DNA from: a virus
Reading direction: 5' to 3' (one strand)
IMG/VR virus record: IMGVR_UViG_3300042878_001565
Location: 1 to 64,000 of that record
Length of the DNA stretch: 64,000 bases
The translations under genes were made by a program, and so were the position numbers. The notes under the pieces were generated by a model, which did no database searches, was not told the origin of the DNA, and saw only the letters and a program-made list of their open reading frames with translations. The stretch's first letter is position 1. Each line of letters starts with the position of its first letter. Positions 11,753 to 46,429 of this stretch are shown here, one piece after another.

Positions 11753-11970
11753 GCAAGTATAAAATTGACAGAGCAAATAGCAGAGATGACTATGATAACA
11801 TGTGTTTCCAACCATCTGATGGTGCATTATATGACAAAGAAATAGCATTAAGTGTTCTTGAGAATAGATGTGGTGGAAGTATGCAAAATGCAAAAACTGG
11901 AGCAGGATTTATGGTAAGTTATAACCGAAATGAAAATGATTGGTTACGTAAAAAATTAAAAATCAAGTGA
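11749..11970 (+). CDS. hypothetical protein
   Basis: ATGA overlap with the upstream gene. Confidence 0.6.
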   Translation: MSKYKIDRANSRDDYDNMCFQPSDGALYDKEIALSVLENRCGGSMQNAKTGAGFMVSYNRNENDWLRKKLKIK

Positions 11971-12425
11971 TGGAAAGAAGATTTACAGTTTGGATAGGTG
12001 GCCTTGAAGCAAATGACAACTACCTAACCAAAAAAGAAGCAGAAAGTTTAGCAGCTAATTGTGTAGCTACAGGTTATGATGATGTAGTAATTGAAGAAAT
12101 GAAAGGTTCTATTACAGCATCTGATTTTATTGCATGGTATTTTTCAGATGAAGATGATGTATTGAATATTGGCAGAGAAGTTATTAATGCAATAAGAACA
12201 ACAGGTTCTAACACAATAACAGTAAAAAGTTTATTTGATTCCTGTGGGTACATACCAGAAGATAAATGTACAATATTTGTAAATGTTGATGATGATTATG
12301 AGTTTGATCCAATTGATTTAATATTCATTGATGATTTGACTGAACAAAAAGAATGTCACAAATGTCACCATGAGTACACTGGCGATATAAGTTTTTGTCC
12401 TAAATGTTTAACCTGCGTATCATAA
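11967..12425 (+). CDS. hypothetical protein with a C-terminal zinc ribbon
   Basis: N-terminal TVWIGG.E.ND...GYDDV module; C-terminal CHKC...CPKC. Confidence 0.7.
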   Translation: MMERRFTVWIGGLEANDNYLTKKEAESLAANCVATGYDDVVIEEMKGSITASDFIAWYFSDEDDVLNIGREVINAIRTTGSNTITVKSLFDSCGYIPEDKCTIFVNVDDDYEFDPIDLIFIDDLTEQKECHKCHHEYTGDISFCPKCLTCVS

Positions 12426-13956: not shown

Positions 13957-14505
13957 ATGTTTAATCTTGAAGATGAATTAAAAAAAGAAACACAAAAAAG
14001 TTATATGTTTCTTTGGCCTTTGTTGAACTTACCAACAAATATAAAACCTATCAACACGTATTTAGGTTTTAAAGATGCAAACACAGACAAGCCTTTGATA
14101 ATTGGAATGTTCCACAAAGATTTGTTTAATTACAAACAACAGAAAAGAATTCTAGTGCAAAATAAAAATTACCAAGTCTATTTTATAGATGAAGGTTTTG
14201 AATATTTTGTTTTTGAATTAAAAGACTATAAACATGATTACGCGTTAATCATTAATGGAATGTATTCTGATGTCAGTCAACGTACTAAAAATAGAATCAT
14301 TGGTTCTTCTGTACATAAAATGACTGGACTAGCATTATATCCAGATGATATACGAAATGAAATCGCAGATCTTTTTAATGTAAAAGAAGGACCAAAAGAA
14401 ATTCTTGGTCCTCCTAATTTTGAAACTGAACTTATATCAGCGTCTGAACGCATGATTAAATTATTCAAAGGATGCTTTATTAAAACTTGCGAAATTCTTG
14501 TTTAA
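13957..14505 (+). CDS. conserved hypothetical protein, last gene of the + strand arm
   Basis: S.MFLWPLL...G.YS.VS pattern; 3' end overlaps the convergent giant gene by 26 nt. Confidence 0.7.
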   Translation: MFNLEDELKKETQKSYMFLWPLLNLPTNIKPINTYLGFKDANTDKPLIIGMFHKDLFNYKQQKRILVQNKNYQVYFIDEGFEYFVFELKDYKHDYALIINGMYSDVSQRTKNRIIGSSVHKMTGLALYPDDIRNEIADLFNVKEGPKEILGPPNFETELISASERMIKLFKGCFIKTCEILV

Positions 14506-17500: not shown

Positions 17501-20500
17501 TTTAACTATATTTGAAACTTCTTCAAACAATATAGTTGAATCAATAATACCTTTAAGGGCTGCAATTTTAGTATTTGTTTGATCAAGTTTTTCTAATAGT
17601 TCTTTACGTCTATCCAATTTTGCTTTTCGTAATTCATAATAATTAGAATTAACTTCAACCTGTGTATTTTGACTCAACCAAGTATTCATTTCATACTCGT
17701 ACTCTAAACTTCCTTTTGTATATTTAGTCAAAATTTGTGCTTCAAACGCAGCAAATACACCTTCAAATTTACCTGGAACTTCTTCATAGTCATGAAAATC
17801 TTTTGTCAACTTATCATAGTTGGTTAACAATTCAGCTATTTGTAAATCATCGCCTGTTTTTAATTGACCTGTTCTATCAAATTTATTTTTAAGTTGTTTT
17901 AAATCAAACCAAAGTCGTGAAGATTCTGTTTGATAATCACCATCAGTAATATTTTCTGAATAATCTCTATTCAAAGCATTCATTTCTGTGTAAATATCGT
18001 CAATCAATCTACGTGCTTTTCTTCCTATAGGTGTACGCATTAAATAATCGTGCTGGTAATATTCAGCAGTATTATCACGATGCATATAATCAGATTCAAA
18101 TTGAGCTTTTGCATCAATAGCATCTAACCATAAATCATAATTGCTACCATCAGGAATTGCAACATAATTACTACGTGCAAGATCAATAGCAACATCTAAT
18201 TCTTTTATTTTAACACGATGGTTTCGAAAATTACTCATAAAAGCATACTCTTCTTTTATTTCTAACTTTCCATCTGCACCTTCAACAGCGTATGTATCTA
18301 CATGACTAATTGCTTTTCCAAGACCAGCTTCTCCAAAAATATTATTACCAAACGATGTACCTTTTAACGCATCATTTAAACCATCTAACAGAGTTGCTTC
18401 TTTTGCATTTACATTACCTGCAATTGTATTAAAATGTTGATTAATATATTTAGCAAAACCACTTGTTATAATATCATCAGACGTAATAAAACCATACATA
18501 GCATTGCTTAAACCTTTAGCATCGCCTAAAAAGTTAGCACTTGTAAGTTTAACTTTATCTTTTGTAATTCTTTCACCTTTAGCTATATTAAGTCGAAGAA
18601 CCATGTGTCTTCGTTGTTCATCATAAGTTAAAGGTTCTTTGTTTTTAACACGAGCATCTAATATATTAAATTCATATTCTTCAGCAAGAGTTACACCGTA
18701 GTAATCAGCATATACCAATTCGTATTCAGCCCATAATCCTTTGTCTTGTAGTTTTTGTAACTTATCTAAATAAGCTTCTTCAATAGGTTTGTGAACTTCT
18801 ACAAGATGATCATGAAAAGCATCAATAGATAATTCTGTAACCTTACTACTTACACGTTGCTGTAATTGTTCTATTTTAGTTTTAATTTTTGAAAACTTTT
18901 CATATACAGGGTTATCTTTTTTAACATGATAATTAAAATAACCGGTTTTAGAATCATCTAATTTGTTAAAATAATCATTCCAGTTATTAGCATAAAGCCA
19001 CATTGAATACAATGTTTCAATATCTTCTTTTGAATCCAAAGTTACATTGTCCATTGTATCAAACTTTTCAGAAAGTTTGTCAAAAAGAATTCCTGTATTT
19101 ACAACTACCGATATAAATTGTTTTAATTTATTATGGAATTGTTCCATGTCTTGAGTAACATCAGCTTCATCTTTAATTTTAACTAAAGACTTAACAGGCT
19201 TTCTTTTATTGAACGTAGTTAATTCTTCTACATCTTTTCTTAACTGCTGTATAATTCCTTGATTATATTCATCGGAAATTTCACCAGCAATCCATTTAAA
19301 GACATCGTTTTCTTTTGTTAAATTACCAACTTGTTTTTTTAGAACTTCGTAAAATTCATTTATAGTCTGTTCTGTTTCTTCAACAGAAACAGCAGCCATA
19401 ATTTTTACTTCATCCTCATACATCTTACCAAACATTGCAACATCATCCATGTCAATGAAATCTCTATCTAAAAGAAATTCTTCACCTGCATTGATCATAT
19501 CAGCAATATCTGCTATCGTAGTGTTCGGATTAAGTTTTGAAATGTTAATTTTTTTACCAAACAACTTTCTTAAAAATTGTTTAATTTGAAAAAACAATTC
19601 TTTAAAAAACCCATCTTTTTGTAGATCAGCTTGGTTAGCGTGCGCATATTGTAATGCATACACTAATGCTTCTTCTTTATACTCATCTGATTCTTTTTCA
19701 AATTCAGATGAGTACATTGTATCCAGGTGTTTTTCAATTTCAGAAAATTCTGGCGATGCTTTTAATTTATCATATAGTTCATTAAATAAATCTCGATTTG
19801 AATTAAAGATTGATTTAATAATTGGATGACCAAACTCATGAACAACTGTACTAGCATTAAAGCGTTCTTGTATTAAAAAGATTTTTCCATTTTTGAAATA
19901 ACCCGTAGTTGTTTTTTGGTTTGGATATTCTTTATCAAAATCTTCTTCAGATATAATTTCAAAATCAACACCTAATTGGTTTGATAATTTTGAAAGTATC
20001 AACATTGCTTTTTGATTGTTGGTTATTTTAACCAAGTCCTTCACTTTAGAAACAGCTCGTGACATTTCAAAAGGTTCTGCTTCTGCATAGTAATCTTCTT
20101 CTATCGTTTCAAGATTGTCGTAATCACGCGTTGTAAGCTTTTGAAAAACTACCTCTGGACTTCTGACTTCACCATGTTGTTCTAATACATCACGTAAAGC
20201 TTCTTCACGACCTACAACCGCAGCAACTTCGTTAAACTTCTGCAAGTCTTCTTCTGATAAATCCAATTTGTTTTCGTCATACGTTTCAAGAACTTTATTC
20301 GAAACAACATCGCCTGTGTTTGGAGATGATTGCCAAGAACGAGTATTACCCAAAACGGTATTGCCACCATCTTGGGTACCTCTATCAACATTTAATTGAG
20401 ATGTTTCTAAACCTAAATCTTTTGCAGTTGGATACTCATCCGTACTGTTTTCTTCCATCCATATCCCAATTTTTGCTGCAAGGATTGAAGGATTAATGTT

Positions 20501-20554
20501 AACTTCTTCTTGAAGCTTTATAAAATCCGGATGTGATTTATTTATACAACTCAT
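14480..20554 (-). CDS. giant virion (probably ejected) protein, 2024 aa, with an N-terminal zincin-like module
   Basis: MSCINKSHPDF start; GYFKNGKIFL...VVHEFGH...EEAL; third of three giant genes around the RNAP, as in crAss-like phages. Confidence 0.75.
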   Translation of the reverse strand: MSCINKSHPDFIKLQEEVNINPSILAAKIGIWMEENSTDEYPTAKDLGLETSQLNVDRGTQDGGNTVLGNTRSWQSSPNTGDVVSNKVLETYDENKLDLSEEDLQKFNEVAAVVGREEALRDVLEQHGEVRSPEVVFQKLTTRDYDNLETIEEDYYAEAEPFEMSRAVSKVKDLVKITNNQKAMLILSKLSNQLGVDFEIISEEDFDKEYPNQKTTTGYFKNGKIFLIQERFNASTVVHEFGHPIIKSIFNSNRDLFNELYDKLKASPEFSEIEKHLDTMYSSEFEKESDEYKEEALVYALQYAHANQADLQKDGFFKELFFQIKQFLRKLFGKKINISKLNPNTTIADIADMINAGEEFLLDRDFIDMDDVAMFGKMYEDEVKIMAAVSVEETEQTINEFYEVLKKQVGNLTKENDVFKWIAGEISDEYNQGIIQQLRKDVEELTTFNKRKPVKSLVKIKDEADVTQDMEQFHNKLKQFISVVVNTGILFDKLSEKFDTMDNVTLDSKEDIETLYSMWLYANNWNDYFNKLDDSKTGYFNYHVKKDNPVYEKFSKIKTKIEQLQQRVSSKVTELSIDAFHDHLVEVHKPIEEAYLDKLQKLQDKGLWAEYELVYADYYGVTLAEEYEFNILDARVKNKEPLTYDEQRRHMVLRLNIAKGERITKDKVKLTSANFLGDAKGLSNAMYGFITSDDIITSGFAKYINQHFNTIAGNVNAKEATLLDGLNDALKGTSFGNNIFGEAGLGKAISHVDTYAVEGADGKLEIKEEYAFMSNFRNHRVKIKELDVAIDLARSNYVAIPDGSNYDLWLDAIDAKAQFESDYMHRDNTAEYYQHDYLMRTPIGRKARRLIDDIYTEMNALNRDYSENITDGDYQTESSRLWFDLKQLKNKFDRTGQLKTGDDLQIAELLTNYDKLTKDFHDYEEVPGKFEGVFAAFEAQILTKYTKGSLEYEYEMNTWLSQNTQVEVNSNYYELRKAKLDRRKELLEKLDQTNTKIAALKGIIDSTILFEEVSNIVKPTVNESGIYEGTRLSLEEQQKITDLNKQIQDGKKLFITKSGLSKHQYLDYVRLSNRKNLKPHEKLRLEAFKLILRTKLQGLEVNDEDLLEVDQIDNDLREMSYSRSTEDYKNMWFDFMYKNSDVYDAVYNAVKKTYKHSDLYNNPVLSEDMVDILLSDLDLIDELKELSPEFKTWFEANHFADEKVVYALDPAIGYQVPKGVVSIWTKSTVWNFSGPYDVDKYYNTKIMNHDLFPNGTLEVNGEPRVPNKAYKSKIVKSDYVTPEIERDELQNGQLILANKDSKGQWLPKTVNEGAIGTNFINDEYQEMLRSKPELFDALMYLKNTYLDNQIGLDSSQTNGLAFPKEKIHGTIENVTTKGFFERKRLGIIRAFSKSNTDDFDSDQYRKASVGYDSNALANTMTRPITGNYEMPLAEQSRNIVSIMGRWLHSVETYKVARDINPVVQMLQDTIKNLGADPDLIKLKQSFETLNMAKPTLSAAESGRLKNINKMIDKHIDGVQVVMPDGFDGRYGTYALRITQFTSKALSKRFFSYNVYSGVKNYASGEIMLAATSAEGKVLNPNDLRVTKRMAMAASNKIVSESWTKKQKDPIIQLITVMDAIPDFAKKRAGHNGGTTFMQSIFKGNQRYAIRKYLGDMVPLHQFFAILNHNKFELNGKQTTLFKAIQLDAQGRVVTMPNVPVEYSISYSDDNKIILGSKLNQLIDLHQNTLTKTIGAANDLNAPDIYRNLMGKMGLFLIKFFPNLLRDRITYGKVKFKHKEILGKKVAVGVRFTPRNNVASGTRELGSYVALLESVGELIRTRGKHLSYENYTGLLKIAIGISIEIALYLVQKNMRFKLNNDDDDESKAFLFDEEKEGMFKWMAASTSVPQAPKFITDITGPIVDEQYTDASGREFDATNFFKIQLLRTIVGVRKETSAFYPMPMMNQGVNMSMMKGVFSTANPLSDILNGFDIALEGEVYEKDAGPLRWQQSGRSKLFNLYLKYEGFDGKMIDAAYGLKQEFRKF

Positions 20555-23500
20555 TTAACATTCTTTTATATCGTTAATTACTCGTTTCATTTCTTTCAAA
20601 GGTAATACTTTAAATTCTTCTAATGGAATGTTAGTGTTTAAATCAATGAATTCTTCAACTAATTTTTGAGCATTATCAGTTAAAGTTTTTGGTTTATCTG
20701 CTTTAACACCATTGATTCTTTCATCTAAAATAGATGCATGATTAAATGCTTCATTTTGAGAATTACTGTAACCAAGAACTGTTTTTGTTTCTTTAGCTTT
20801 CAATCTATCTATTGTGCTATTAATCCAGTCACGTCTTTCTTTTGCATACTCAAGACTAATTACGTTATCAAATTTATCTTTAAATACATCTTGACCATCC
20901 AACCATTCTTCATACGCCATTGAAGCTACATCAACACTTTTCATTTTAATTTGACCTTCTACATTAGAACCAGTAAAAGGATTGCCAAAATGTTTATTTT
21001 CACTTAAACCTTTAAATCCAAATTGCGCAGATGCAGCTTGTGCTTTTGACACACGCATTGTATATAAAATATCACCTTTGTTGTGGGCTTCTCTTAAATC
21101 TGCCATTTTCATAATTTTTAAAGTAGGCGATAAAATTTTTGGTTCATAAACTTTTTGAGTATTTACTTGTGTTATACTTTCAACATATTTTTTAGCAAAT
21201 GGTATTTCAACCTGCATTAAGTATTGTTCAATAAAAGAATCTGTAACAGAAGATCCAATATTAATAGCAGCTCTTTCAAAATCAGATAGTGCAATTGAAA
21301 ATCCATTTTTGTATGTAGGATTTTCAGCAAAATATTTTTTTGATTCTGCATCTACCATTTTAAATCCTTTTTCAGAAATATCTTTTTCAGACATTCCTTT
21401 AAATAAATTAAGGCCTGTTATGTGATAAATGTAGTTGTCAATTCCAATCTTACGTCCAGATTTAACACCAAGAGTAACATCGTACATTGGAGAACTAATA
21501 CCATCTAAACTTTTTACAACCTCATAGTATTTTCCTAAAGGAGAATAACGAACAACTTTTGTATATCCTTTTTCTTCAAGAAACTTTAAAGCCATTTCAT
21601 CAATACCATTTGCAGAACCTACATTAAATGTTTTAACACCAGCTTCAATTGCTTTTGTAATTTTAGGTTCGTAATTTTTTTTGAAATCAGCGGTAACTAT
21701 ATCAGTATATCCTTTCAAATCAGTTAATCCTTCGTATGCACTTTTAAACAATCCTGCACCAAAAATCCAAACGCTATCGGTGCTTTTATATTTATTATCA
21801 AAAGCTTTTTTGTTTGTTTGATTGATAACATCAATGTAGTTTCTTGTAGAAGAACGTGCAACATAATTAGGATTTGATTCAGAAGGAGTAGCAATTGCTT
21901 TAGTAGAATTGTTTGCCATTGACTCATCTTTAACCCAATGATTATCTTTTCTATTTTTAGATTCAGCAATTGACAATCCACCAGCCACAGCATTAATTGC
22001 TTTTGCAACTAATACAGGATGATCACCGTAGTTATTAAACCCAAAGTATTCTAACAATAATTTATTCCAACTTGAAACCGCTATATTTTTATTTGGTACA
22101 TCTAAAATTTGCATTGGCATTGCTAGTTTTTCACCAGACAATGCTATAATTTTTTCTTTTATTTTTGTAGCAGTATCTTTTTCATCAAATATTTCAGACA
22201 TATCAAACGGAGTCATCTCTGATGGATCAACCGCTAAAATGTTTTCAACTAATGTAATGTTATTATATGTTTGAACTGAATTCAAATACTCTTGTTCAAT
22301 TGACAATGACATTGTTTCTGGCTGTACATAATTATAACCTCTATTACGAAGTTTATAAACACTAACAGCCATATTGTTGAATGCATTGTAAAACTTACCA
22401 ACTACTCCACCAACTGCTTTAGCAATCTTTTTTTCTTTTTCATTTTTCTTTGCAATCTCATTTAACGATTGTGTTAAACCTGCTGATGAGAATGTTGAGT
22501 CGATAACATTTTTTACATTGTTAGTAGTAATAAGTTTTCCTAAATAATATTTAGCTGCAGTATTCATACCTGATTGCATAAATATCATGTGCTCAAATGC
22601 ATTTTTAGAAAAGAATTCTTTTACTGCTGGATCAGGAAAATTCTGAAGCTTGGTAAGATTTTCCAAATAAACTTTAGTCAAAATTGGATCTGCTTTTTCA
22701 GCCAAATAAAAATTTGATTTTCTTGTACCTTCGCTTTTATTTTCAGTGTCAAACTTCATATCTTGAATTAATGAAAATTCACTAAAAGCATCTGCATGTT
22801 TTGCTTTCATTGCTTTAAAAATACCAACTAACCCAACTTCTTTGTCGAATAACATCCCTGGTGTTTTTGTTCTATACAATGCTTCAAGTTTTAACAAGTC
22901 ATCCATCGGTAACTCATTTCCAAACTTTTCTTTTTTGTATGAATAGTAATAAAAGTTTTCACGAATTTGAGCATCAATTGCATCTAACTTATCTTGAATA
23001 GGTTTCATTTTAGCATCAACTGCATCAAGTTCTTTTTCTGTTGCACCTTCTAACTCTAAATTTTTTCTTTCAATTTCAATTTCTGACAAATCAGTTAATG
23101 CATCAAATCGACCATACTCATCTTGAATTTCGTCTTTAAGTAATTCTAATTCAACTTTGTATTTAACATACTCTACTGGTGAATTAATTGAATCAAATAA
23201 ATGCGATACATGACCATCTTGCAAAATCTCATTTTTAACTGCACCAAGGTTGTAATAAACTTTACCATTTGATCGATCAATCTTGTATGCAGTTGTTAAT
23301 TTATTTGCAGGATTAACACTAGAAGCTGGTTGAGCAATTTGATCTTCTAATCTTTTAAGTTCTTGTTGTAAGAATTTAAATGTTAGTGGAGCTCTTGTAG
23401 GTAATTCAGCTAAACCAACACCCATTTGAGGAATTATAAGTTTATTATATTTTCCTGTATTCCATTCTGCAATTGCTTTGTTTATATCTGCAGTAATAAT

Positions 23501-26500
23501 TTTTTTGTTTTTTTCTAGTTCAGCATCTGATTTATATGCTTCTTCATTACTTGCTGGTAATTTTTTAGTAGATATACCAATAGCATTTGATTCACCACGC
23601 ATTTCTTTTGCTTGACCGCCTAATCCTTTTCTTATATCATTATCTCCAAATAAATATAAAGTTGTAGGATTTGCTTTTAACTCACTTCTTACAATAATTT
23701 TATTTGTTTTTTCAACACTAGCAGATTGTGCAGTAGGTTTTACAGTAGATTCAACTTCTTTAACTAAATCAAACGTAGCATTGCTTTCTCCAACTCTACT
23801 AGCACTTGTATATGTGTCTGTTCTATATACTGAATTTTGGTACAAGAACCACATTAAATCGTTTTTAAAGGCGTTACGTAATACAATTGGAAGTATTCCT
23901 TTTTTATTACCGCCATTCAATGACAAGGCTAATCTATTAACAACAGGATTGTTTTTAATTTTGAAAAAATTCTTAAACATATTAATAACCAAATTGGTAT
24001 TGTTGTAAATACCAATTGGAGATGTTTCAAATTTAGTCCACCATTCTGCTGGTATAGCAGTATGACCACTTTTTAATTTCATGACATCTGCAATATTTTT
24101 TTCAGCATCTGTTATATTGCTAATCTTTGTCGTATCGTATTTAGAAACTTGTGAAAACTTTGTTACATCTGCAGACAATTCTTCTAGTGCAACATATTGT
24201 GCAAAGATTTCAATGTCATCTTTGTTCACTGTAGAAGAACCTATTCGTCCTTCAAGAAAGTTAGTTTCAAAAATAGAATTATTGGACGCTACATTGTTGA
24301 TACCAAAAAAGGAATGCTTTGCGTATCCAGCATCAAACAATTCTTTTTCATACTCTTTCTTTAAAATATCTAAAGCTTCTTCTCTAATTGCATCTGGTGA
24401 TAAAGATTTACCGATTGGATTATTTTCATTTAATTTTGAATACGTTCCTGATAATTCTTTTTTAATGGTATTATATCTAATCGTTAACGGATTAGAAGAA
24501 ATATAAATTGCATCATTAATTGGAACACCTGCCATAACCATAAACAAAAGGTTCGGAGTATTCTCTTTATTACCTTGGATGTTAAATACCCATGCATTTT
24601 TACCAACATCGACATAACCATTAATCAACTGTGAAATAATATCCGCTGTTAATTTTCCATCTTTAGCATAACGAGAACCAACTGATATTCTACCATCAAT
24701 TTCATTATGGTTTAATTTTAATGTGTATGCTTTAAAATTATTAATTCTTTCTAAAGCTTTTGCTTTTAAAGCACCGTTAGATTTTGGATCATTGTAAATT
24801 CTTATGTCATCATTAAATTTCTCCAAGTCTTCTCTTTTAGCTGTGTTTAATCTTGAATCAAACGTACTAAACATTGCAAAGAATGTAGATACAACAGCAG
24901 CAATACCCAAAGACTCCATACCAACAGAGTTCTCTTGATGTTTTTGCAAGTTATACATGTAATCCATTACTGTTGTACGTGATATTGAATCAGATTTATC
25001 AGCATGTATTTTTTCAAGTTTGTTGTATTTACCAGCAGTAATTTTTGTTTCCAAAGCGTTCGCTATTGGTAATACATCTCTTGTTGTATTCGGTGTAACC
25101 AAATCAACAAAATTATCTTTAGCTAAAATCTTTCTATTAAACAAATTAACCAGTTTATTCTCAAGTCCTTTTACAGAATGGCCAACTTTCTTACGTTCTA
25201 ATTCAGCACCAATTTCTTTTTGAGCTGCAATCTTTTCTTTAAGCGATGCTTTTTGTTTTTTGAAATTATCAAATTTCGCACTTAATTCTGTAGAAAGGGT
25301 TCCAACATATTGCAAAAATATTCCATCACGCAGTGTATTGATTGAATCTATTTGTGCATTTATTTTAGATATTTCTGTTTCAATAAGTTCTTTATATTCA
25401 TTTGCTGCAGCTTTACCTAGTTTAGTTCCAAGGTACGTTCCAGTTGATTTTAATTCTTTTAATTGATCGTTGTATTTTTTACGCTCTGGATACAATAAAT
25501 CTAATGCAGGTTGATACAACTCTGCTTTTTCAAATGCAACCGTTTGATCTTTAAATAATTTTTCAGACTCATCGTAAACTGCAGATAACTCTTTTTCTAA
25601 AGGTGTAATGTTTGATTCATAAAAGTCAGTGTACTCTGCAGCGTAACGATCATAAGCACCAGTATCTCTACCGTAGTAGTTATTCAATTCAGGTTTGCTG
25701 TTGATAATAGAAATACTTGGATACAAGAAGAACATTTTATCAATATCGTAATCCGCTCCTGATTTAGCCACAATCTCTGATGGTAAAATTACTTTTGCAC
25801 CAGAATATTCAGGTAAAAATTCAGCAACCGTAACCGAGTCTAAAGCATTAGGACCTTGTGTTGGGATACGAGTTCCAGGAAAGTTTAACATTGCTTTATG
25901 TTTTGCATTCCATTCAGGATCTTTAATCGATTCATTCAATCTTTTTAAAGATGCATCGTAATCCATAACGCCTTTTTTATCTAAAACACGAATAGGCTTT
26001 TTATCTGGATGATCTGCATATAATAATTTTTTGAAATCCCCCTGCAATGAAATTTTAACTTCCATTGCAAACGTCAATGAACCATCTTCATCACGACTTT
26101 CATAAAACTTTAATCCATTAGTTCCATTAGCGTCTGCTTCCATGTCTGAACTTTCATACATAGCACCAGACACTTGAACCAAAGCTTCACCATTAACTTT
26201 TATTTTACGAAGAGATGAATCAATTAAGGTAACCACAATTTCTTCGATCTTCTGACTGTTTAATGAATATGATAAATCCTCAACCAATCTACCAGAAGCA
26301 TCAGTTAAAAAAGCAACTTCATGTGGTAGATAATCATTCTTAATCATTTCACGTTTAATGTAATCTGCTAGTTTTGTACTATCTCCTTCATACGTTCCTG
26401 TAGTAGGATTGTATTGGTAATCAATATTCTCAAGCAAATCTTCTCTTACGTGATCTCTATACGTTGTTAATATGTCAGTGTACTCTTTATACCATCCATA

Positions 26501-29500
26501 ATTTTTAGATGCAGCAAGGCGTTCTTTTTCAGTTTTAATAGACTTCCATTTAGCAATTCTATCTGCATCACCTTTTAAATAATCCATTGGCACACCATTA
26601 TCAGCAATACCATGAAGAATCATTTTTTTCATTTGTGTTGGTAACACTACTTTTCCTTTATATCCTTCATCAATAAACACCTGATTTTTCAAATGTTTAA
26701 CTGAAATTATATTCGGAACAAATTTTAAATCAGCATCTACAGAACGATCTTTTTTATAAAACGTATCTGGTTTTTTAACAATTACTTTTTTACCATCAGC
26801 ATTAGTTTCTACAGCTACGCGTGACAATGTAGAAAGTTTGGAACCTGATTGCATAGTAGCATAATCAATTCCTTGTTCCATCATTGACTTGTGTAATCCT
26901 TCAAGTTTAGTTCCTTTAATTTCATTTGGAATCAATGGAGCTAATGAATACTTATGAAAAGCAGTAAGCCCTAAATTCATTGATTTAAACTTATCTGTTG
27001 TACTTAACGGTCCGTAGTATTGAAACTTTTTTACTGGAAACGTAGAACTCATATCAGTTTGCTCAATAGTTTCACCTTTAATAATTTTCTGATAAAGTTT
27101 TTCTTGACCTGCTGACCATTCACCACATGAAATATTTAACAGCCTGTATGTATCAAAAGTTATCCAACCTTGACCATCGGCTTCTTCCATGTTACTGTAT
27201 GTTTCTGCAGTTTCTTTACCAAGTTTTTTTTCAAGCTCTTCTAAATATGATGATGGTACTTTAGACTCATCTAAAATTGCAGTTTTTAAATCACCAGTAT
27301 ATTGATAATCACGCTCAATACCCAATTGTTTAGCGTAACCAAAATTATTAAATTGTGCATTATTGTTTACAAAATTTTTGAATGATTCATCTGATGCAAA
27401 TATTTTTCCAGTAGAAATCATACCGGCATTACGTTTGTGGAAATCACCACCCTCAATGTTGTATAACGCCAAATCACCTAAAAACAATGATGTGTAATTA
27501 GTATTTTGGATAAAGTTATTTACAATGTGTGCTCTAAAAATTCTAAGTTTTGTATCAGAAATTGATTCATTTTCTACAGCGGTACTTTTATATTTCTCAA
27601 TTAATTCATCTGGAAATACTGTATCTGATTTTAATTTATTTAATGTTTCAGCTTTTTTACTAAAGTATGACTTCAAATTAGATTCAATGTTCTTCTTTAA
27701 TCCAGGACTTAATTGTTTTCTGATGCTGAATGATTGCAGGTCGTCTATAGAAAGAGAACGAGCTAACTTCAACAAATCATTTTTGGTATCGACATCTAAA
27801 ATATCATCAAACAAAAAGAAGTTTTTACCACGTTCAAAATACTTAAAGTCAATTGCAAAGTTTTCAGGATCAATTAAAATCTCCTGTTCTAATTTTTCCA
27901 ATCGAACCATTCGAATTAACTCTGCTTCTAAATGACCAATCATTTCATTACTTAAAATAGAACCAGCGTATCCATCTGTAAAAATAGTATCAATGTCTTG
28001 TGCATTTACAATCAATTCTTTGGTTTTACCACCAACAATTGAATTGTTTCTCATTTGATTTGCAAGAACTGTTAATGAAGAAGATTTTGCTTCTGTTCTT
28101 GGTATCTCTTGAACACCATCTAATGTCAACAATACATCGGATAAAAATTTTGTTTTTTCATCAGAACCAATTGATGATATACCTTTATCTTCAGATGTCA
28201 TGTCTATCAATCTACCATCTTCGTCAACACGTTTTACAGTGTGTATTAATTTGGAACCAGATAAATTCTCAACTGAAATTCTAATGCCAGGGTTTCTTTT
28301 ACCACGTACCGTTGGATTAAAGTGATCTAATTGAAACATATCAACAAACCATTTAGAACCAGCAACAGAAGGATTTTCTAAATAATTAAATTTAGACATC
28401 CCTTGCATTGCAATTAATTCATCATAATGATTTGCTTTATTTAAAGCCTGCACCTCAACTGTAAGTGATGAGTTTAATACTTTTTCACTTGCCTTCTCAC
28501 CATACGCTGTCATCGACATAAACGATGTGCTATCGCTTGAATACATTGAGTGTAATTTGATTAAACTATTTATGAATCCAGCTTTTCCAATTTCGTCAAT
28601 TCTCACACCATCTTCATAGTAATAAAAATCTTTTGCTAAATCAGATAAACTTCTAATCCCTGTACCATTAATTGCATCTTGTTTTTTTATAAGAAAATCA
28701 ACAAAATATGGGTAATCACTAGCTTTAATTTTTAAATCATCAGAACCTTCTTTTAGTATTTGTTTAACAATTGGATCATCTGAAATATTAATTCCAAATA
28801 ATTTTAAAAACTCTACTGGTTCTGCGTATGCTCTTAATTTTGGCGTTGATGAAAACTGTGCTTTAGTTGCTTTTGGTAATTTAAGATACGCACTTTTTGA
28901 AATAGAAATTCCACCATTAACAGACTCATGCACTTCTTTTAAAAACTTTGAATGATTTTTATTTTCAAAAAAAGATTTAAGGTTTAATGTATATGGTGAA
29001 AATTTATTTTCGCCTTGTTCTATACGTTCACCAATAATTTCTAATAACGATGTGAAATTATCATTCCAATCATTTTTAATAAATGTTTCCGATGCTGCTG
29101 TTCTACCTGAATGCGAAGTAGTACGACTTTCTACAAAGTTTTCATCCTTTTCTTCATTTGTATATGTAACCGTTTTTTCAATAATTTGTTCTCGTAATAA
29201 TACATCCGCTTTATTAAGAGATTGCCAAAATGCTAACCATTGATTCTGTTCTTCAAAAGTTGAAGAAGGTGAACCAGGATTACCAAGTTTTGAAACAAGT
29301 TCTTTAATTTGAAAATCATCAATACTAGCTGCAAGTAATTTTTGATACATGTCGTCACGATCTAATGTATTAGTTAACAACTTTGCAGTTTTAGCAAGCA
29401 TTGTTTTAAATGGTGCAAGTTTTGCAAAACCTAGAGCATTAACTTCTAATGTACCTTTACCATTTTTAGAATAAGAACTGATGGTACTTAAAAGTTGTTT

Positions 29501-32500
29501 AGTTTGATCATCAACTAATTCTGAAATTGAAAATTCAGCACCAGTTCTTTCAAAAATAACACGTTCGTCATCTTCATATTTTTCTTTTTCGGTATTGACA
29601 TAACTGTACTCATTAATAAACAAAGATGCCATGTCACCATACGATTCTTGTTTGGTTAAAATTGTATCAATGTTTTCTAAATTTCCAAAGTTAGCAATGG
29701 CTTTATTTAAAGTATCAATAGCAAATTTTGCTGAAAGATTATTTGGTTCATCTTCTAATGTTAATTTGTGAATTGCAACCTTTTGTTGTAATCTTTTTTT
29801 AACAAAATCTAAACCCATTTGTGTTAAAACAGGATTATTTTGAATTCTAAAAATACCATACCCATTGTATTTATCAGCATAAGATTTTTTAAAATCAGCA
29901 ACGATTGCTTGAGCTTCTTCATATTCTAATTTATTCGTAATAGGATTAATTGAAGCTAAATGAGTCATAGCAAATATACCATTTTGCGAATTCTCATCTG
30001 AATTATCCATTGCATTTACACCTTCAGTAACAAATTCGGTAAACAATGCCTGCATTGAGTCCATTACTAAATGAGTTTCTTCTAATGAAAAATTAAGTTC
30101 TTTTTGTAATTCAGCTGATTGATATACAGCATGTGAATCTCTACTACTAAATTTAGAAACATCAATGTTACCTTCATACAAGTTATTAAACATTGCATTC
30201 GTTACACCTTGAACACGATTCAATGCTATTGCATCAGATAGACGCATATTACCAAATAACCCTTTTAAAAGATTAGATATTTTTTCAAAGAATTGTGATA
30301 CTCTTGTTGAAAGTTTATTTGAATACTTTCCTTTTGACATAGCAAACTTACGGAACTCTTCAGCTAAATATTCTTCAAGTTCTAATTCATTTGCATTTGC
30401 AAAAGCAAGTCTTTTTTCAACGCCTTTAACTGTTACATCAAAGTATCCAGGTTTGTTTTTTAATTCAGCATACATGTTATTTCTTTCTACCGCAGTAAGT
30501 ATTCCCATACTATATGCGTGAAATGATTCGTGATATAAATCTGTTTTGCTAGAACCCAAATACATATTAATTGAATTACCCACAAACTCTGCTAAAAAGT
30601 TTGGACCAAATTCATGAATTTCGTCTGAAAAATTTACCTTCAGTACACGCAATAATGGATTAGTTTTCATCCATGCATCTGCCCGCAATTCTTGTGCTTC
30701 AGAAACAGATTCTCTATTTTGAGATGCAAGTGATTGAAATAAACTTTTTCCTTTATAGTTTTCTTTTACCGTATCAAGAACATCTATGTTAGTCACAACG
30801 TCTTCAACTTGTTCAGTAAATGAAACGTATGGATCAGATGCTTTAAACTCTCCTTGATTGTTTAATTCATACATTGTACTACCAAGATCAATTACGTTAT
30901 CTAAAATTGTTGTAAGCTTTGTTTTAACAACGCCATCTTCAATACCAGTTATAACATGTAATTGAGAATCTATGTTTGATTTTGGTTTTAATCCAAAATT
31001 TATTGCAGGTGATTTAGAAATATAAAGCTGACCATTGTTGTAATACAACTGTTGTTCATCAGTTGTTTCTTCTAATGAATTAAAAATCTTTACATCTGTC
31101 ATATCACCTTTTGGTACAAAAGGAACACCTGTCCTATTGTAAACAAAATTTCGCAATGCTTCTTTAATGTCAGAAAAATTTTCTTCTTTTATTTCAAATA
31201 AAACATTTTGAATATAAACGTGTGGTAATTTTTTCTTACCGTTTTCTGGTAAAAGAAATTCTGTAAATACTTTATCTTTTGAACGCTGTATTAAACTTGA
31301 TATAAGAATATTTCTATCTACTGTGGACCATGCAGCATCTTCTTGATTTTCTTTTGTAGTTGCTACTTTTGGTTTAGTATTTACAATTAATTCATACAAA
31401 GCTTCAAACTGTTCATCAGATATAGAACTTAACAATTTACTAAAAACGCTTGTTGGCTTATTTGAACCCTCTGCTTTTAATTCTATCCAATATCTTTTAT
31501 CGCGTTGATTTACCGAAAAATTTAATTTAGCCAAGTTTGCTATGGCCTTTAATGGATTTCTTTTATTGATGTTATATTTCATGACACCATGATCACTATT
31601 CTTGTAATCAATATCTAAAAGAATTGTTTTTCCATCTTCTATCCTTTGTGCAATTCTTGCAATTGATTTTAAATAGTTATCAATTTTAGTTTGAACAATA
31701 CGAGTGGCTTCTTCTATAGAAACACCATTATTTTCTGCATAGATTGCAGGCAACAATTCAGTCTGTCTTTTAAAGTGATGCGGTTCTGTTTTAATTTTCA
31801 TTACAGGAGAACTTCCTGTTTCAGAAACATTACCAGCTTCATTGAATTTTACAATGTTTCCTTTTGCGTCAGTAAACAATAGAACTACGTCATTATCTTT
31901 TATACGAGCGTATTCAGAAACAACATCTGTTTTTGATAAAACATCTTGGCTTTTAAAAGCTCTTAATTTTAGATCAGATGTTGGTGAATTTAAAATAGAT
32001 AATTGAACACTCTGTCTGAATTTAGAGTTTCTTTTTTCTTCAACCGTAGAAGGAATTTCAGATAAATCTAAATTAAGATTGTATGTTTTGTTAAACTCTG
32101 AAGACATTGCATCAAATCCCTCTTGCATGTTAACAACTGGAGGAAGTTGACTAACCCCTCCAACCATTTTACCTATTTGATTAACAATATTTGGAAACTC
32201 TCCGTTTTCATTAACACTTGCATTAATTATTTCATCACGTAAAGCTTTAATGTCAGAAAATAAACTTTCATTTTTTTTCGTCATTGGTGCATTTAAGTGT
32301 GCATATAACATTTCAGGCGCAATAGTTAAATGCTGTAACACAATCTCTCTGGTCTTTTCTTTTGAAAAACCTAACTGTGGTTCAAAATCAGACAACGCTT
32401 TGTTAAAAAGCATTGTCATCATTTGTTTTGCAGTAACATTTCCGTCGTAAAAACTTGGAATCTCTTTCTTAAAATAAGCAGCAAAAAGATTAATTGAATT

Positions 32501-32521
32501 CGGAGTAATACAAATATTCAT
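20555..32521 (-). CDS. giant single-polypeptide virion DNA-dependent RNA polymerase (crAss-like, double-psi barrel type) with accessory domains
   Basis: Catalytic loop KSGADYDIDK (DYDID at 25739-25753) preceded by RIPTQG (~25850-25870); EADGQGWIT (~27160-27185) and HKYSLAPL motifs; zincin HESFH at 30518-30532. Confidence 0.9.
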   Translation of the reverse strand: MNICITPNSINLFAAYFKKEIPSFYDGNVTAKQMMTMLFNKALSDFEPQLGFSKEKTREIVLQHLTIAPEMLYAHLNAPMTKKNESLFSDIKALRDEIINASVNENGEFPNIVNQIGKMVGGVSQLPPVVNMQEGFDAMSSEFNKTYNLNLDLSEIPSTVEEKRNSKFRQSVQLSILNSPTSDLKLRAFKSQDVLSKTDVVSEYARIKDNDVVLLFTDAKGNIVKFNEAGNVSETGSSPVMKIKTEPHHFKRQTELLPAIYAENNGVSIEEATRIVQTKIDNYLKSIARIAQRIEDGKTILLDIDYKNSDHGVMKYNINKRNPLKAIANLAKLNFSVNQRDKRYWIELKAEGSNKPTSVFSKLLSSISDEQFEALYELIVNTKPKVATTKENQEDAAWSTVDRNILISSLIQRSKDKVFTEFLLPENGKKKLPHVYIQNVLFEIKEENFSDIKEALRNFVYNRTGVPFVPKGDMTDVKIFNSLEETTDEQQLYYNNGQLYISKSPAINFGLKPKSNIDSQLHVITGIEDGVVKTKLTTILDNVIDLGSTMYELNNQGEFKASDPYVSFTEQVEDVVTNIDVLDTVKENYKGKSLFQSLASQNRESVSEAQELRADAWMKTNPLLRVLKVNFSDEIHEFGPNFLAEFVGNSINMYLGSSKTDLYHESFHAYSMGILTAVERNNMYAELKNKPGYFDVTVKGVEKRLAFANANELELEEYLAEEFRKFAMSKGKYSNKLSTRVSQFFEKISNLLKGLFGNMRLSDAIALNRVQGVTNAMFNNLYEGNIDVSKFSSRDSHAVYQSAELQKELNFSLEETHLVMDSMQALFTEFVTEGVNAMDNSDENSQNGIFAMTHLASINPITNKLEYEEAQAIVADFKKSYADKYNGYGIFRIQNNPVLTQMGLDFVKKRLQQKVAIHKLTLEDEPNNLSAKFAIDTLNKAIANFGNLENIDTILTKQESYGDMASLFINEYSYVNTEKEKYEDDERVIFERTGAEFSISELVDDQTKQLLSTISSYSKNGKGTLEVNALGFAKLAPFKTMLAKTAKLLTNTLDRDDMYQKLLAASIDDFQIKELVSKLGNPGSPSSTFEEQNQWLAFWQSLNKADVLLREQIIEKTVTYTNEEKDENFVESRTTSHSGRTAASETFIKNDWNDNFTSLLEIIGERIEQGENKFSPYTLNLKSFFENKNHSKFLKEVHESVNGGISISKSAYLKLPKATKAQFSSTPKLRAYAEPVEFLKLFGINISDDPIVKQILKEGSDDLKIKASDYPYFVDFLIKKQDAINGTGIRSLSDLAKDFYYYEDGVRIDEIGKAGFINSLIKLHSMYSSDSTSFMSMTAYGEKASEKVLNSSLTVEVQALNKANHYDELIAMQGMSKFNYLENPSVAGSKWFVDMFQLDHFNPTVRGKRNPGIRISVENLSGSKLIHTVKRVDEDGRLIDMTSEDKGISSIGSDEKTKFLSDVLLTLDGVQEIPRTEAKSSSLTVLANQMRNNSIVGGKTKELIVNAQDIDTIFTDGYAGSILSNEMIGHLEAELIRMVRLEKLEQEILIDPENFAIDFKYFERGKNFFLFDDILDVDTKNDLLKLARSLSIDDLQSFSIRKQLSPGLKKNIESNLKSYFSKKAETLNKLKSDTVFPDELIEKYKSTAVENESISDTKLRIFRAHIVNNFIQNTNYTSLFLGDLALYNIEGGDFHKRNAGMISTGKIFASDESFKNFVNNNAQFNNFGYAKQLGIERDYQYTGDLKTAILDESKVPSSYLEELEKKLGKETAETYSNMEEADGQGWITFDTYRLLNISCGEWSAGQEKLYQKIIKGETIEQTDMSSTFPVKKFQYYGPLSTTDKFKSMNLGLTAFHKYSLAPLIPNEIKGTKLEGLHKSMMEQGIDYATMQSGSKLSTLSRVAVETNADGKKVIVKKPDTFYKKDRSVDADLKFVPNIISVKHLKNQVFIDEGYKGKVVLPTQMKKMILHGIADNGVPMDYLKGDADRIAKWKSIKTEKERLAASKNYGWYKEYTDILTTYRDHVREDLLENIDYQYNPTTGTYEGDSTKLADYIKREMIKNDYLPHEVAFLTDASGRLVEDLSYSLNSQKIEEIVVTLIDSSLRKIKVNGEALVQVSGAMYESSDMEADANGTNGLKFYESRDEDGSLTFAMEVKISLQGDFKKLLYADHPDKKPIRVLDKKGVMDYDASLKRLNESIKDPEWNAKHKAMLNFPGTRIPTQGPNALDSVTVAEFLPEYSGAKVILPSEIVAKSGADYDIDKMFFLYPSISIINSKPELNNYYGRDTGAYDRYAAEYTDFYESNITPLEKELSAVYDESEKLFKDQTVAFEKAELYQPALDLLYPERKKYNDQLKELKSTGTYLGTKLGKAAANEYKELIETEISKINAQIDSINTLRDGIFLQYVGTLSTELSAKFDNFKKQKASLKEKIAAQKEIGAELERKKVGHSVKGLENKLVNLFNRKILAKDNFVDLVTPNTTRDVLPIANALETKITAGKYNKLEKIHADKSDSISRTTVMDYMYNLQKHQENSVGMESLGIAAVVSTFFAMFSTFDSRLNTAKREDLEKFNDDIRIYNDPKSNGALKAKALERINNFKAYTLKLNHNEIDGRISVGSRYAKDGKLTADIISQLINGYVDVGKNAWVFNIQGNKENTPNLLFMVMAGVPINDAIYISSNPLTIRYNTIKKELSGTYSKLNENNPIGKSLSPDAIREEALDILKKEYEKELFDAGYAKHSFFGINNVASNNSIFETNFLEGRIGSSTVNKDDIEIFAQYVALEELSADVTKFSQVSKYDTTKISNITDAEKNIADVMKLKSGHTAIPAEWWTKFETSPIGIYNNTNLVINMFKNFFKIKNNPVVNRLALSLNGGNKKGILPIVLRNAFKNDLMWFLYQNSVYRTDTYTSASRVGESNATFDLVKEVESTVKPTAQSASVEKTNKIIVRSELKANPTTLYLFGDNDIRKGLGGQAKEMRGESNAIGISTKKLPASNEEAYKSDAELEKNKKIITADINKAIAEWNTGKYNKLIIPQMGVGLAELPTRAPLTFKFLQQELKRLEDQIAQPASSVNPANKLTTAYKIDRSNGKVYYNLGAVKNEILQDGHVSHLFDSINSPVEYVKYKVELELLKDEIQDEYGRFDALTDLSEIEIERKNLELEGATEKELDAVDAKMKPIQDKLDAIDAQIRENFYYYSYKKEKFGNELPMDDLLKLEALYRTKTPGMLFDKEVGLVGIFKAMKAKHADAFSEFSLIQDMKFDTENKSEGTRKSNFYLAEKADPILTKVYLENLTKLQNFPDPAVKEFFSKNAFEHMIFMQSGMNTAAKYYLGKLITTNNVKNVIDSTFSSAGLTQSLNEIAKKNEKEKKIAKAVGGVVGKFYNAFNNMAVSVYKLRNRGYNYVQPETMSLSIEQEYLNSVQTYNNITLVENILAVDPSEMTPFDMSEIFDEKDTATKIKEKIIALSGEKLAMPMQILDVPNKNIAVSSWNKLLLEYFGFNNYGDHPVLVAKAINAVAGGLSIAESKNRKDNHWVKDESMANNSTKAIATPSESNPNYVARSSTRNYIDVINQTNKKAFDNKYKSTDSVWIFGAGLFKSAYEGLTDLKGYTDIVTADFKKNYEPKITKAIEAGVKTFNVGSANGIDEMALKFLEEKGYTKVVRYSPLGKYYEVVKSLDGISSPMYDVTLGVKSGRKIGIDNYIYHITGLNLFKGMSEKDISEKGFKMVDAESKKYFAENPTYKNGFSIALSDFERAAINIGSSVTDSFIEQYLMQVEIPFAKKYVESITQVNTQKVYEPKILSPTLKIMKMADLREAHNKGDILYTMRVSKAQAASAQFGFKGLSENKHFGNPFTGSNVEGQIKMKSVDVASMAYEEWLDGQDVFKDKFDNVISLEYAKERRDWINSTIDRLKAKETKTVLGYSNSQNEAFNHASILDERINGVKADKPKTLTDNAQKLVEEFIDLNTNIPLEEFKVLPLKEMKRVINDIKEC

Positions 32522-32522
32522 A

Positions 32523-35500
32523 TTATTTACATTGAGTTTTTAAAGTTTCAATAATGGAATCTTCCACAAAAAGATCAGCCGCTACTGATGTGTCAAAGTT
32601 ACTAAAAACATTTTGAAGCGCATCTTTAATAATCTTGCCTTTTTTACTAGAAGGTTTTGTTTCAAAAGTATCCTTTTTTACAGGAACCTCTTCCGCAACC
32701 ACATCCTTTATATTACTCAAAAAATTCAACATATCCAAGTTTTCAAGGTTCGAAGTTTCAACATTAAAAACTGAAACCGTATCTTTTGTGGAAGACATTA
32801 TTTTATAACGTGTACCATCTTTCATTAAAACATCCTCTTTCGAGTGCTCGTTTTTATAAAATCCTTGTGCTAATTTTTCTTTAATTATATTTTCAACAAC
32901 TTTAGATTGCTTATCAGAAAATAAAGAACCTTGTTGCATTTCATATTGATAAACACCAACAGCATAAGCTAACGATATAGCAGTAGGTCCATTTTTTATT
33001 TTTTTAACAAACTCTTGATGCAGAGGATGTGTTTCATATGCTTTTTGTGGTGCTTCTTTTACATTTTCTTTAATGAAAGCATTAACTAAAACATTTAATT
33101 CCTGTTCAGCTTTATCCTGTTCTGTTTTTTCTTCAAGTCCTTCTGTGAATAAATCACGTTTAGGATCTTTCTTTGGAGCTTCTATAAACTTTGTAAGAGG
33201 TTCATCTGCTATGTCTTTTAACATTTCGTTATACAACTTCACATGACGATCAATCGTTTCATCTGAAACATCAGCACGATCTTCACCTTTACTAATTTGA
33301 GCTTTAATTCTTTTTTTAGCAAGCTCGCCATCTAAAGGCATAAGTTTATATTCCAAACTTAATTCTGGAAATTGTTTTTTAATAGCGTTTGTAAAATCAC
33401 GTCTTCTTTCTTTTTGAAGATTAGTTGTATCAATAACAACTTTTTTGCCATTTTTAATTGCAGCAATAGTTCTCTTTTTAACCTCTTCATAAATTTCAGT
33501 GTCTTTACTTTTATCATTCATATCGCCTGTAAATTCTACACGCATAGCGTCAGGAGAAATTACAACATACTCATCTGCAGGTAAAGATTTAATCCATGTG
33601 CTTTTACCAGAACCTGATGTTCCAATTGGTAAAACAACTTTTAAATTAGCATCAAGTTTTTTAACGTCTTCTTTTTCATATAAACCTTCAAATGCAGCAC
33701 GATCATAAATTATACGTTCTGTTTCAGATAAGTCTTCTAATGCACCAGTGTAACTACCAGTTTCAATTGTAAACAATTTAGAGTTATAGTATTCTTCCAA
33801 ATATTTAAACTCATCCTCAATCATTTTTTGACCTTCTTCTGTAGAAAAGAAGTCAATTTCTTCTGGTGTTCTTGGTTCCTCTTCTGTTGACAATACATCT
33901 TTCTCTTCAGTAACAAGTTTGTTTTCAATAATCTTGTTTTCTTTTTTGACTGATGGTAACGCTACAGTTCCTTTCAGTTGTGCTTTTGTACCATGCTCAA
34001 TCGAATAGATTGTACCAATTGGCTTATAACCTTTCTTATTGATTATACGAATACGATATGGATTCTTAACCTCAAGCAGTTTTTTGTTTATTTCTGTAGC
34101 AATTACAGGAACCAACATTCCTTTTCGTTCCAGTTTGAAAAACAAATCAACCAGTTCTTTTGTAGCCAATACTTCGTTTTCACTGAATTTTATATTATCG
34201 CTAATACGTTTCTTTTCAGCAGTAACCTCACGTTTAAAATCACGTACTGATTTTGCAAATGTTTCAGCTTCTTGTTTGAAAATCTTTGGATGGTAAATAC
34301 TAATGAATCGACCAAGGGCTTTTCCAATTTTAACGGATACTGTTTTAAGTTTTCCTTTTGCATCTTCTTCCTGGAACTCTAATGTACCTGTAGTTAATGC
34401 ATCCAAGTTTGTTGATGTACTTGTAGCTCTTTTCTTTTTACGATCTTTTTTACGTTGGAACTCTTCTTCAGCGTCCAACAATTCCATAAATTCAGCTTCG
34501 TAACGTGCTTGTGCTTCAGCATCAAGTTTATCTTGTGCTTCCAATTCCACTAGCATTTTCTTTTCAAAAATGAAATGAATTATTCCAGGAACATCTAACG
34601 CGCGTTCTTTAAAAGCTTTAATCAAATCACTACGTTCAGCATCTGTAAGAATTGATGTATCGATTGTTAATCCAGATTTAGTTAACAAATGATCCATTAA
34701 CTCATCATCAGACAATACTTCTTTTACAGGTTTATCTTTACGTTCTTTACGTTCAGATTCTACACGCGCAGCATTATCTTTTTGAGATTGAGTTATAGCT
34801 TTTGCATTTTGATTGTATTCTACAATAGCATCAATAAAGTCTTTGTGACCATCTTTGATGTATCGATTGATTACATTCATTTCAGACTCTGTTATATTAC
34901 CATGCGATTTACCGAATACATTTGCCATAGCGTATTGCAACGTCAATGGAAATTGTTGGTATGGTACGTTTTGATCATATATCAATGAACCATCTGCATT
35001 GTAATTAAAGTCATCTTCACTATATTCGATTGGTTCTAAAGAAGAATCTACAAGAGTATCTGTTACAACATTTGTAGTAGGAGAAACACTAACAGGTAAT
35101 GCATCTAATTCTTGTTGTAATTGCTTTCTTTCAATAAGCAGTTTAGTACGTTCGGAGTTAAGCGATGTAATCTCACGACTCTTTGTTATAGTACCACTAG
35201 ACAACTTACCTGCTATGTTATTAACCATAGCATCAATATTTCTAATTCGGTTCTGCAAATCAGTTCTTTCTTCGGTAGTATCATTTACTACTTCAAAAGG
35301 TGTTTCAGTTTCTTCCGTTTCAGTTTCTTCAGTTTCTTCAGTTTCCGTAGTAGGTGTAATGAAATCAGAAATAATCTCAACCGCATCAGGTTTAATGTTA
35401 GCATCGGACCAAAATTCAAATTGAGTTCGGTCTTTTACTATCATCGTTGCCAACTCATCAACCGTTGTTAAAAAATCAAGTTCATCAACAAAAGCCACTT

Positions 35501-42416: not shown

Positions 42417-42425
42417 AATATTAAT

Positions 42426-44213: not shown

Positions 44214-44250
44214 CTTGTAATTTTTATAAAGGTATTAATTAAATGTAAAT

Positions 44251-46428: not shown

Positions 46429-46429
46429 A

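Follow-up and report, generated by a model that had tools for sequence, protein, structure and literature searches.

Paired cysteines at the facing ends of giant RNA-polymerase cargo proteins suggest a head-to-tail linkage in crAss-like phages

No phages are more abundant in the human gut than the crassviruses, whose virions have to take up and deliver about 1 MDa of protein, a giant RNA polymerase (RNAP) among it. The locus analyzed here bears directly on how this is achieved. It lies in a stretch of 64,000 nucleotides (nt) of viral DNA (IMG/VR record IMGVR_UViG_3300042878_001565, positions 1 to 64,000), which is called the window in the following. Three contiguous open reading frames (ORFs) on its minus strand encode proteins of 2508, 3988 and 2024 amino acids (aa), termed A, B and C, and nearly all of their very few cysteines are located at the ends that adjoin in gene order. 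The proteins (assigned by ORF and homologues, in the case of B by motifs and homology) and the cysteine codons found by a script count are:

32523-40049, minus strand: protein A, 2508 aa, putative chain member 1
32529-32531, minus strand: TGT codon of Cys2507 of A, one residue before the C-terminus (...LKTQCK, stop)
20555-32521, minus strand: protein B, 3988 aa, crAss-type virion RNAP, putative middle chain member
32510-32512, minus strand: codon of Cys4 of B (MNICITP...)
27125-27127, minus strand: codon of the internal Cys1799 of B (NISCGEW)
20558-20560, minus strand: codon of Cys3988 of B, the final residue (...NDIKEC, stop)
14480-20554, minus strand: protein C, 2024 aa, putative last chain member
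20546-20548, minus strand: codon of Cys3 of C (MSCINKSHP...)

An earlier, sequence-only reading of the window had counted five cysteines in the 8520 aa of A, B and C, and the script reproduced this number and every position exactly; about 90 would be expected from the 1.05% mean of the other ORFs of the window. Residue 2507 is the sole cysteine of A and residue 3 that of C. As the same reading had pointed out, four of the five are located within four residues of the junction-facing termini, and the two outer ends, the N-terminus of A and the C-terminus of C, are without cysteine. The probability that at least four of five randomly placed cysteines fall within the 16 junction-facing positions is P = 6e-11, and it is P = 1e-8 when six terminal stretches of 10 residues are used instead. 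The fifth residue, Cys1799 of B, does not belong to the terminal rule, and the window's own subclade is the only one that retains it. Four smaller proteins, presumed to be cargo as well, are encoded directly upstream:

40053-49720, minus strand: four proteins of 787, 595, 725 and 1096 aa with 0, 2, 0 and 0 cysteines, none of them terminal

The cysteine-free junctions of these four proteins are an internal negative control. A large structural protein of 1666 aa encoded further upstream contains 23 cysteines.

A tblastn search with B matched g066 of Cellulophaga phage phi14:2, a characterized virion RNAP, with E = 6e-20, as well as 89 other Crassvirales records, and the nearest database relative of the window is an IMG/VR contig of 92-93% identity. 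The RNAP gene is flanked by two giant genes, one of them with a zincin HExxH motif, and the whole block lies downstream of the smaller cargo genes and adjoins a strand switch, past which the DNA polymerase and helicase of the replication module follow on the plus strand; this gene map agrees with phi14:2 and cr111_1. Since the gene order is the crassvirus layout, the three genes are identified, on the level of sequence, as the RNA-polymerase cargo block of a crAss-like phage from the environment, equivalent to gp67-gp66-gp65 of phi14:2. Virion packaging of the cargo has been demonstrated by mass spectrometry for phi14:2 and crAss001, and by homology A, B and C would be packed in the virion and ejected as well. 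In B the catalytic DFDID motif (residues 2257-2261) and an HExxH motif (residues 664-668, window 30518-30532) are invariant in all 31 aligned homologues, and a DUF7831 domain spans residues 2940-3053. C carries its invariant zincin HExxH at residues 239-243 (window 19826-19840), and A has a P-loop of the AAA_33 or polynucleotide-kinase-like type near its C-terminus (residues 2138-2270). Megablast and tblastn searches with the variable C-terminal third of B returned no match among phages; the RNAP core alone is conserved. A phmmer search of PDB sequences with B was likewise without match, despite the structure of phi14:2 gp66 reported in a preprint, because the two sequences are too far apart for phmmer.

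Conservation of the terminal cysteines in homologues had been named as a check on the pattern, and they turned out to be conserved. A cysteine is present in the first seven as well as in the last ten residues of 112 of the 120 B homologues listed (identity 25-100%, length 2451-4984 aa), and in 71 homologues this terminal pair represents the only cysteines. At least six of the eight exceptions look like cut-off or mis-started gene calls; P0114 and P0116 are homologues without N-terminal cysteine. The only cysteine of the A homologues is the last or second-to-last residue in 10 of 11, with P0129 being an A-like homologue that has no cysteine at all. All 30 C homologues have a cysteine at position 3-6, which is the sole one in 24 of them, and no outer end with a cysteine was found among the homologues of A and C. 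In alignments the column of Cys3988 of B (31 sequences) is invariant, on par with the catalytic residues, and so is that of Cys3 of C (42 and 26 sequences), and the terminal cysteines are kept down to 21-25% identity. As they are conserved in relatives, the doubt that the pattern of the window had been picked post hoc is removed. One B homologue, P0065, has a gene call that begins nine residues too early (MRNLIDVSKMKICITPK) and reads MKICITP from the internal Met10. Going by the terminal cysteine motif, P0065 should truly begin at Met10, which shows that the rule can correct start-codon calls.

To follow the junctions beyond single proteins, an alignment-based scan of viral contigs was used that yielded 76 loci, 73 of them unique (designated by L numbers). 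Plus-strand ORFs of at least 400 aa were considered with the first ATG as start, and all adjacent pairs were scored for a cysteine among the ten final residues of the upstream protein and among the first seven of the downstream one. A cysteine is present on both sides of 129 junctions and on neither side of 49, and there is not a single junction with a cysteine on one side only. The 49 cysteine-free junctions are located among the upstream cargo genes or between these and A, and every complete A across the 73 loci has a C-terminal cysteine. The proteins of at least 1000 aa add up to 519,640 residues with a cysteine content of 0.055%, and 255 of their 286 cysteines are terminal. The C-terminal cysteine is followed by 0-9, mostly 0-3 residues and preceded by an acidic, amphipathic stretch; the N-terminal cysteine has 2-6 residues in front of it, Met included, and is followed by family-specific motifs such as CITP, CPN and C(I/V)N.

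The arrangement of the genes in some of these phages separates the protein chain from the DNA. PhiCrAssBcn1 (Kehishuvirus, crAss001-like) encodes its A homologue on the opposite strand, away from the start of the RNAP gene, and the only cysteine of this A homologue is residue 2339 of 2341. The RNAP of this phage contains Cys5 and Cys2600 (2608 residues in total), and the next protein contains Cys5 alone. In addition, the genes at eight junctions with cysteines on both sides are set apart by 100-1111 nt of other sequence. The opposite-strand gene and the wide gaps clearly indicate that the rule is independent of gene adjacency and is not an effect of the DNA junction.

The number of cysteine pairs also follows the number of chain members. 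Two-member chains with a single cysteine pair were found in cr118_1, cr4_1, cr1_1, cr50_1 and ctbg_1. In the four Suoliviridae among them (cr118_1, cr4_1, cr1_1, cr50_1) one protein of 4491-4946 aa occupies the syntenic slots of A and B, and homology to phi14:2 gp66 starts only about 1760-2030 residues in, so that a fusion with A is apparent from synteny, size and the onset of the B homology. These large proteins have no N-terminal cysteine, keep the C-terminal one and are followed by a protein starting with M(I/Q)C. The sequence-only reading had suggested that junction cysteines should be absent where the genes are fused, and none is present at the approximate fusion point of the apparent A-B fusions; residues 1-4025 of the large cr1_1 protein are without cysteine, so that a continuous backbone goes along with the loss of the A/B pair. 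In ctbg_1 (Intestiviridae) a 2312-aa protein ending with ...KWVCT is followed by a 4407-aa RNAP starting with MSC, which is the last chain member and has no C-terminal cysteine.

The paired gain and loss that had been proposed as a further check can be followed at splits as well. Four-member chains are present in L013, L037, L043 and L049, in which every internal protein has a cysteine at both ends. L013 has A in two pieces. A1 matches residues of about 90-1200 of the unsplit A of L063, L019 and L016, and the end of A2 matches residues 1687-2168; the unsplit A has a C-terminal cysteine only and none at the break, where A1 ends with ...KCR and A2 starts with MSDRC. In L037 a 574-aa protein X shows 47-50% identity to residues 74-642 of the unsplit long C of L064, L051 and L046, which has no cysteine in the matched region; X ends with ...NNCFR and the next protein starts with MYTC. 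Judged from these alignments, the two loci represent two independent breaks of the backbone, each with a new cysteine pair.

Two further observations concern the gene structure of these loci. The annotation of L005 (cr108_1) divides the RNAP gene into parts of 2967 aa and 798 aa that lie about 290 nt apart (21380-21671), and the second part starts at a non-ATG codon. This looks like an intron or another interruption within the RNAP, as reported for crAss-like phages (PMC7886860), and the terminal rule holds at the real C-terminus of the RNAP (...NLCK, then MANVC). Gaps of about 350-1100 nt between giant chain genes occur in L013, L016, L019, L025, L049, L063, L068 and L076; the extra sequence sits between B and C, in L049 between X and C, and probably consists of small inserted genes.

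In some chains the cysteines are part of larger modules. A C-terminal module (GITQEEWDxLTxEEKDNIxKC) with the pattern G(I/Y)TQE.WD.L(T/P).E(E/K)K(D/N)(D/N)I..C is present on A1 of L013 and on the RNAPs of L049 and L043, and over its last approximately 36 residues L013 A1 shares 67% identity with the end of the L049 RNAP. The protein that follows has, in each of these loci, an N-terminal module of about 50 residues (M..C(I/V)N...FK.L...) that is homologous to the N-terminus of C in the window (BLAST E 2e-11 to 2e-5), whose first approximately 50 aa thus form an N-terminal module recurring on other proteins placed after junctions. In L013 the module pair sits mid-way in what is elsewhere a single A protein. 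The recurrence of a matched C- and N-terminal pair on different carriers fits cognate docking elements that move together. The profile of the C-terminal module gave weak matches in L010 and L076. A complex prediction without alignments for residues 3739-3988 of B and 1-350 of C resulted in a score of 0.16 (mark 0.34), which does not weigh on either side of the question of binding.

A structural counterpart of this arrangement is available from cyanopodophage A4 (Anabaena phage A-4L). In the pre-ejectosome, as analyzed by cryo-electron microscopy, gp26 takes up the C-terminal helix of gp27, and a disulfide between Cys1715 of gp27 and Cys5 of gp26 locks it in place (PNAS 2025, PMC12002296). According to the A-4L genome, these residues are the sole cysteines of the 1717-aa gp27 and the 1114-aa gp26, which are encoded by consecutive genes, so that A4 shares with the window consecutive large ejection-protein genes with sole cysteines at the facing termini. 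A4 differs from the window in its family (Saffermanviridae), in having a single junction and in the lack of an RNA polymerase in the chain, and no BLASTP match between A4 gp25-gp29 and the three giants of the window went below E = 0.02. Furthermore, the crAss chains have two to four members, along which the rule can be tracked across fusions and splits, whereas the disulfide of A4 has been treated as a structural detail and not as a general rule. We assume that the window functions like the A4 gp27-gp26 type without being a member of its family. As the A4 structure shows the same signature to be a disulfide, the head-to-tail linkage of separately translated proteins that the sequence-only reading had proposed appears well supported, in combination with conservation and pairing. 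Its statement that no description of such a mechanism was known does not fully hold, since A4 is a published precedent for a single junction. A search of open-access papers and bioRxiv found no paper describing terminal cysteines in crassvirus cargo; within this scope the rule is not known to have been described for Crassvirales, and, with the A4 disulfide as precedent, it is not categorically new.

With a probability of roughly 65%, we assume that in the virion each cargo protein is docked end to end to the next one and that a disulfide locks the two together as a head-to-tail tether. Structural disulfides as such do occur in the crAss001 virion, where they are located in the tail and at the portal vertex (PMC10172136). 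Apart from the cysteines at the junction-facing termini, the cargo block is purged of cysteines, as is known for phage proteins ejected through the periplasm. In this scenario the C-terminal segment of one protein would dock on the N-terminal module of the next, and the inter-protein disulfide would form outside the cell, where the medium is oxidising. The three giants would then represent one covalent, nearly linear chain with overhangs of 0-9 and 2-6 residues, in which the disulfide would be a reducible stand-in for the peptide bond of the apparently fused relatives. The very short overhangs would fit a chain that stays nearly linear for a narrow channel, and the scarcity of other cysteines would fit the need to avoid wrong crosslinks. 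We infer the formation of this bond in crassvirus virions; it would fix the stoichiometry (1:1:1) or the order of exit through the tail, and the chain would be threaded through the tail and separated by host thiol reductants in the cytoplasm. The far-reaching version of this idea, a single disulfide-linked train of up to about 8500 or more residues across Crassvirales with reversible connector modules, 1:1:1 composition, fixed exit order and reductive uncoupling, is a tentative one, and we would sooner doubt than endorse it.

Several other roles for the terminal cysteines have to be considered. A bridging metal ion (Zn, Fe or Cu), bound by the junction cysteines and other ligands, might hold the docked termini together. 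Such a shared metal site had been raised by the sequence-only reading, its formation would be possible while the virion is assembled in the reducing cytoplasm, and all three giants carry, or adjoin, metal-dependent HExxH modules. However, there are only two cysteines per junction and the terminal profiles contain no conserved His, Asp or Cys partner, and therefore the ligands are too few to build a stable structural site; the cysteines of a two-member chain number two altogether, and the sole solved instance of the signature is a disulfide. We consider the metal bridge unlikely. A bond to partners other than the chain neighbor, be it in homodimers, in the portal or capsid interior or to another cargo protein, is quite unlikely in our view. 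It draws on the many inter-protein disulfides in the tail and portal vertex of the crAss001 virion (PMC10172136), but it predicts neither a first member without N-terminal and a last member without C-terminal cysteine nor the both-or-neither pairing of 129 to 0, nor two cysteines per split and none at the joined point of apparent fusions, and the neighboring cargo proteins have no spare terminal cysteine to offer.

The cysteines could also be reactive handles for autoprocessing, acylation, a thioester or another non-disulfide crosslink, or for a ligation resembling trans-splicing that leads to a polyprotein. Inteins and odd expression mechanisms are abundant in these crAss-like genes (PMC7886860) and the same proteins look like fusions in relatives, but neither a signal peptide or lipobox nor conserved catalytic partners beside the cysteines are present, which makes this role very unlikely. 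Split inteins and protein trans-splicing were rejected as candidates, the overhangs of 0-9 and 2-6 residues being far below intein halves of tens of residues. At the level of DNA, both junctions of the window look alike (AATGT..TAA..ATG..TTGT) with genes 0-1 nt apart, as would be expected if the cysteines were a by-product of tight gene junctions (stop/start overlap, translational coupling), or else chance in cysteine-poor proteins might have produced the pattern. The rule persists, though, with the first gene on the other strand and with gaps up to 1111 nt, the distance of the cysteine from the terminus and the flanking residues vary, and 49 equally tight upstream cargo junctions are without cysteine. 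Chance is opposed by P = 6e-11 in the window alone. Both the artefact and chance are thus refuted by the opposite-strand case, the wide gaps and the chance probability, and their likelihood is close to nil.

The disulfide tether itself also has to be weighed against a number of points that speak against it. The host cytoplasm is reducing, which would restrict formation of the bond to the time after assembly or release. The habitat of gut crassviruses is anoxic. The pairing of 129 to 0 overstates the number of independent events because the loci share ancestry; only about eight (splits, insertions, fusions and one relocation) are truly independent, and the informative evidence is provided by the architectural variants rather than by raw junction counts. 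BLAST and phmmer detected no homology of the N-terminal halves of the fusion-like proteins to A. The profile of the C-terminal module gave no match at E < 1 to the C-terminus of B in the window, and the claim of a junction cassette is therefore limited to L013, L043 and L049. Furthermore, no crassvirus data on actual cysteine-cysteine bonding were found in open-access papers and bioRxiv, and the cargo proteins gp47, gp49 and gp50 are not resolved in the crAss001 maps (PMC10172136).

The closest characterized relatives of the block are g067-g066-g065 of phi14:2 and gp47/gp50/gp49 of crAss001-like phages, which resemble the window in the homologous RNAP (DFDxD), the gene order and the location in the virion. 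The cysteine rule of phi14:2 is as in the window: the sole cysteine of gp67 is the last residue, Cys1797, gp66 contains Cys3 and Cys2179 and no others, and gp65 contains Cys3 alone. Neither the preprint on phi14:2 gp66 nor the crAss001 papers (including PMC10172136) mention terminal cysteines in cargo proteins. The proteins of the window are much larger than those of phi14:2 (3988 versus 2180 aa for the RNAP) and contain extra domains, and the sequence identity is about 23%.

The virion RNA polymerase (vRNAP) of N4-like phages is a T7-like single-subunit enzyme, unlike the two-barrel RNAP of crAss-like phages. In N4-like phages (Schitoviridae; DEV gp71-gp73, N4 gp50-gp52) the vRNAP and the co-ejected proteins are nearly free of cysteines, which has been explained by the passage through the periplasm (PMC11445570). 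In contrast to these ejection proteins with essentially zero cysteines, the crAss block retains the junction-facing terminal ones. Short portable docking modules at the termini are also known to order the separate subunits of modular polyketide and non-ribosomal peptide synthases. These docking domains are non-covalent, cytoplasmic and not homologous to the crAss modules, and the analogy is one of working principle only.

A universal rule by which n cargo proteins have n-1 junction cysteine pairs is directly testable in two cultured systems and would explain why the gene boundaries in this block vary freely between relatives. If the idea of a disulfide-linked train is true, evolution can cut or join the giant genes freely. 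For annotators, the terminal cysteines are a marker of true protein ends and start codons, as in P0065. The findings suggest that the A4 disulfide is one instance of a wider podophage design, and the module pair may represent a natural connector for the ordered, reducible coupling of proteins.

Some additional features of the window should be mentioned. B and C are in the same frame with only a TAA between them (GAA TGT TAA ATG AGT TGT; 20552-20557), and read-through of this stop would result in a 6013-aa fusion. Between A and B there is a TAA plus 1 nt (32519-32526), which places B in the +1 frame relative to A. No sign of use of read-through at B/C or of a frameshift at A/B was found in the window. 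An invariant zincin HExxH is present in both B and C, and published papers treat the zincin in the gp65-like protein only. A protease within the RNAP protein could provide an alternative route to separating or activating chain members.

The 595-aa cargo protein (MATFLNGVT..., 42426-44213, minus strand) has exactly two cysteines, residues 128 and 134 (C-x5-C), and homologues from many loci have the pair at the same place (125/131, 127/133, 128/134, 128/133). Close cysteine pairs are also present in gene 18 of PhiCrAssBcn1 (280/288), in the 742-aa cargo protein of cr111_1 (224/232) and in g069 of phi14:2 (369/378). The pair of the 595-aa protein may form a small intramolecular disulfide loop or one half of a metal site. 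The most cysteine-rich ORF of the window is located at 11970-12425 on the plus strand and encodes 151 aa with eight cysteines (5.3%); it has no PHROG match and may encode a small zinc-binding protein of the replication or early module.

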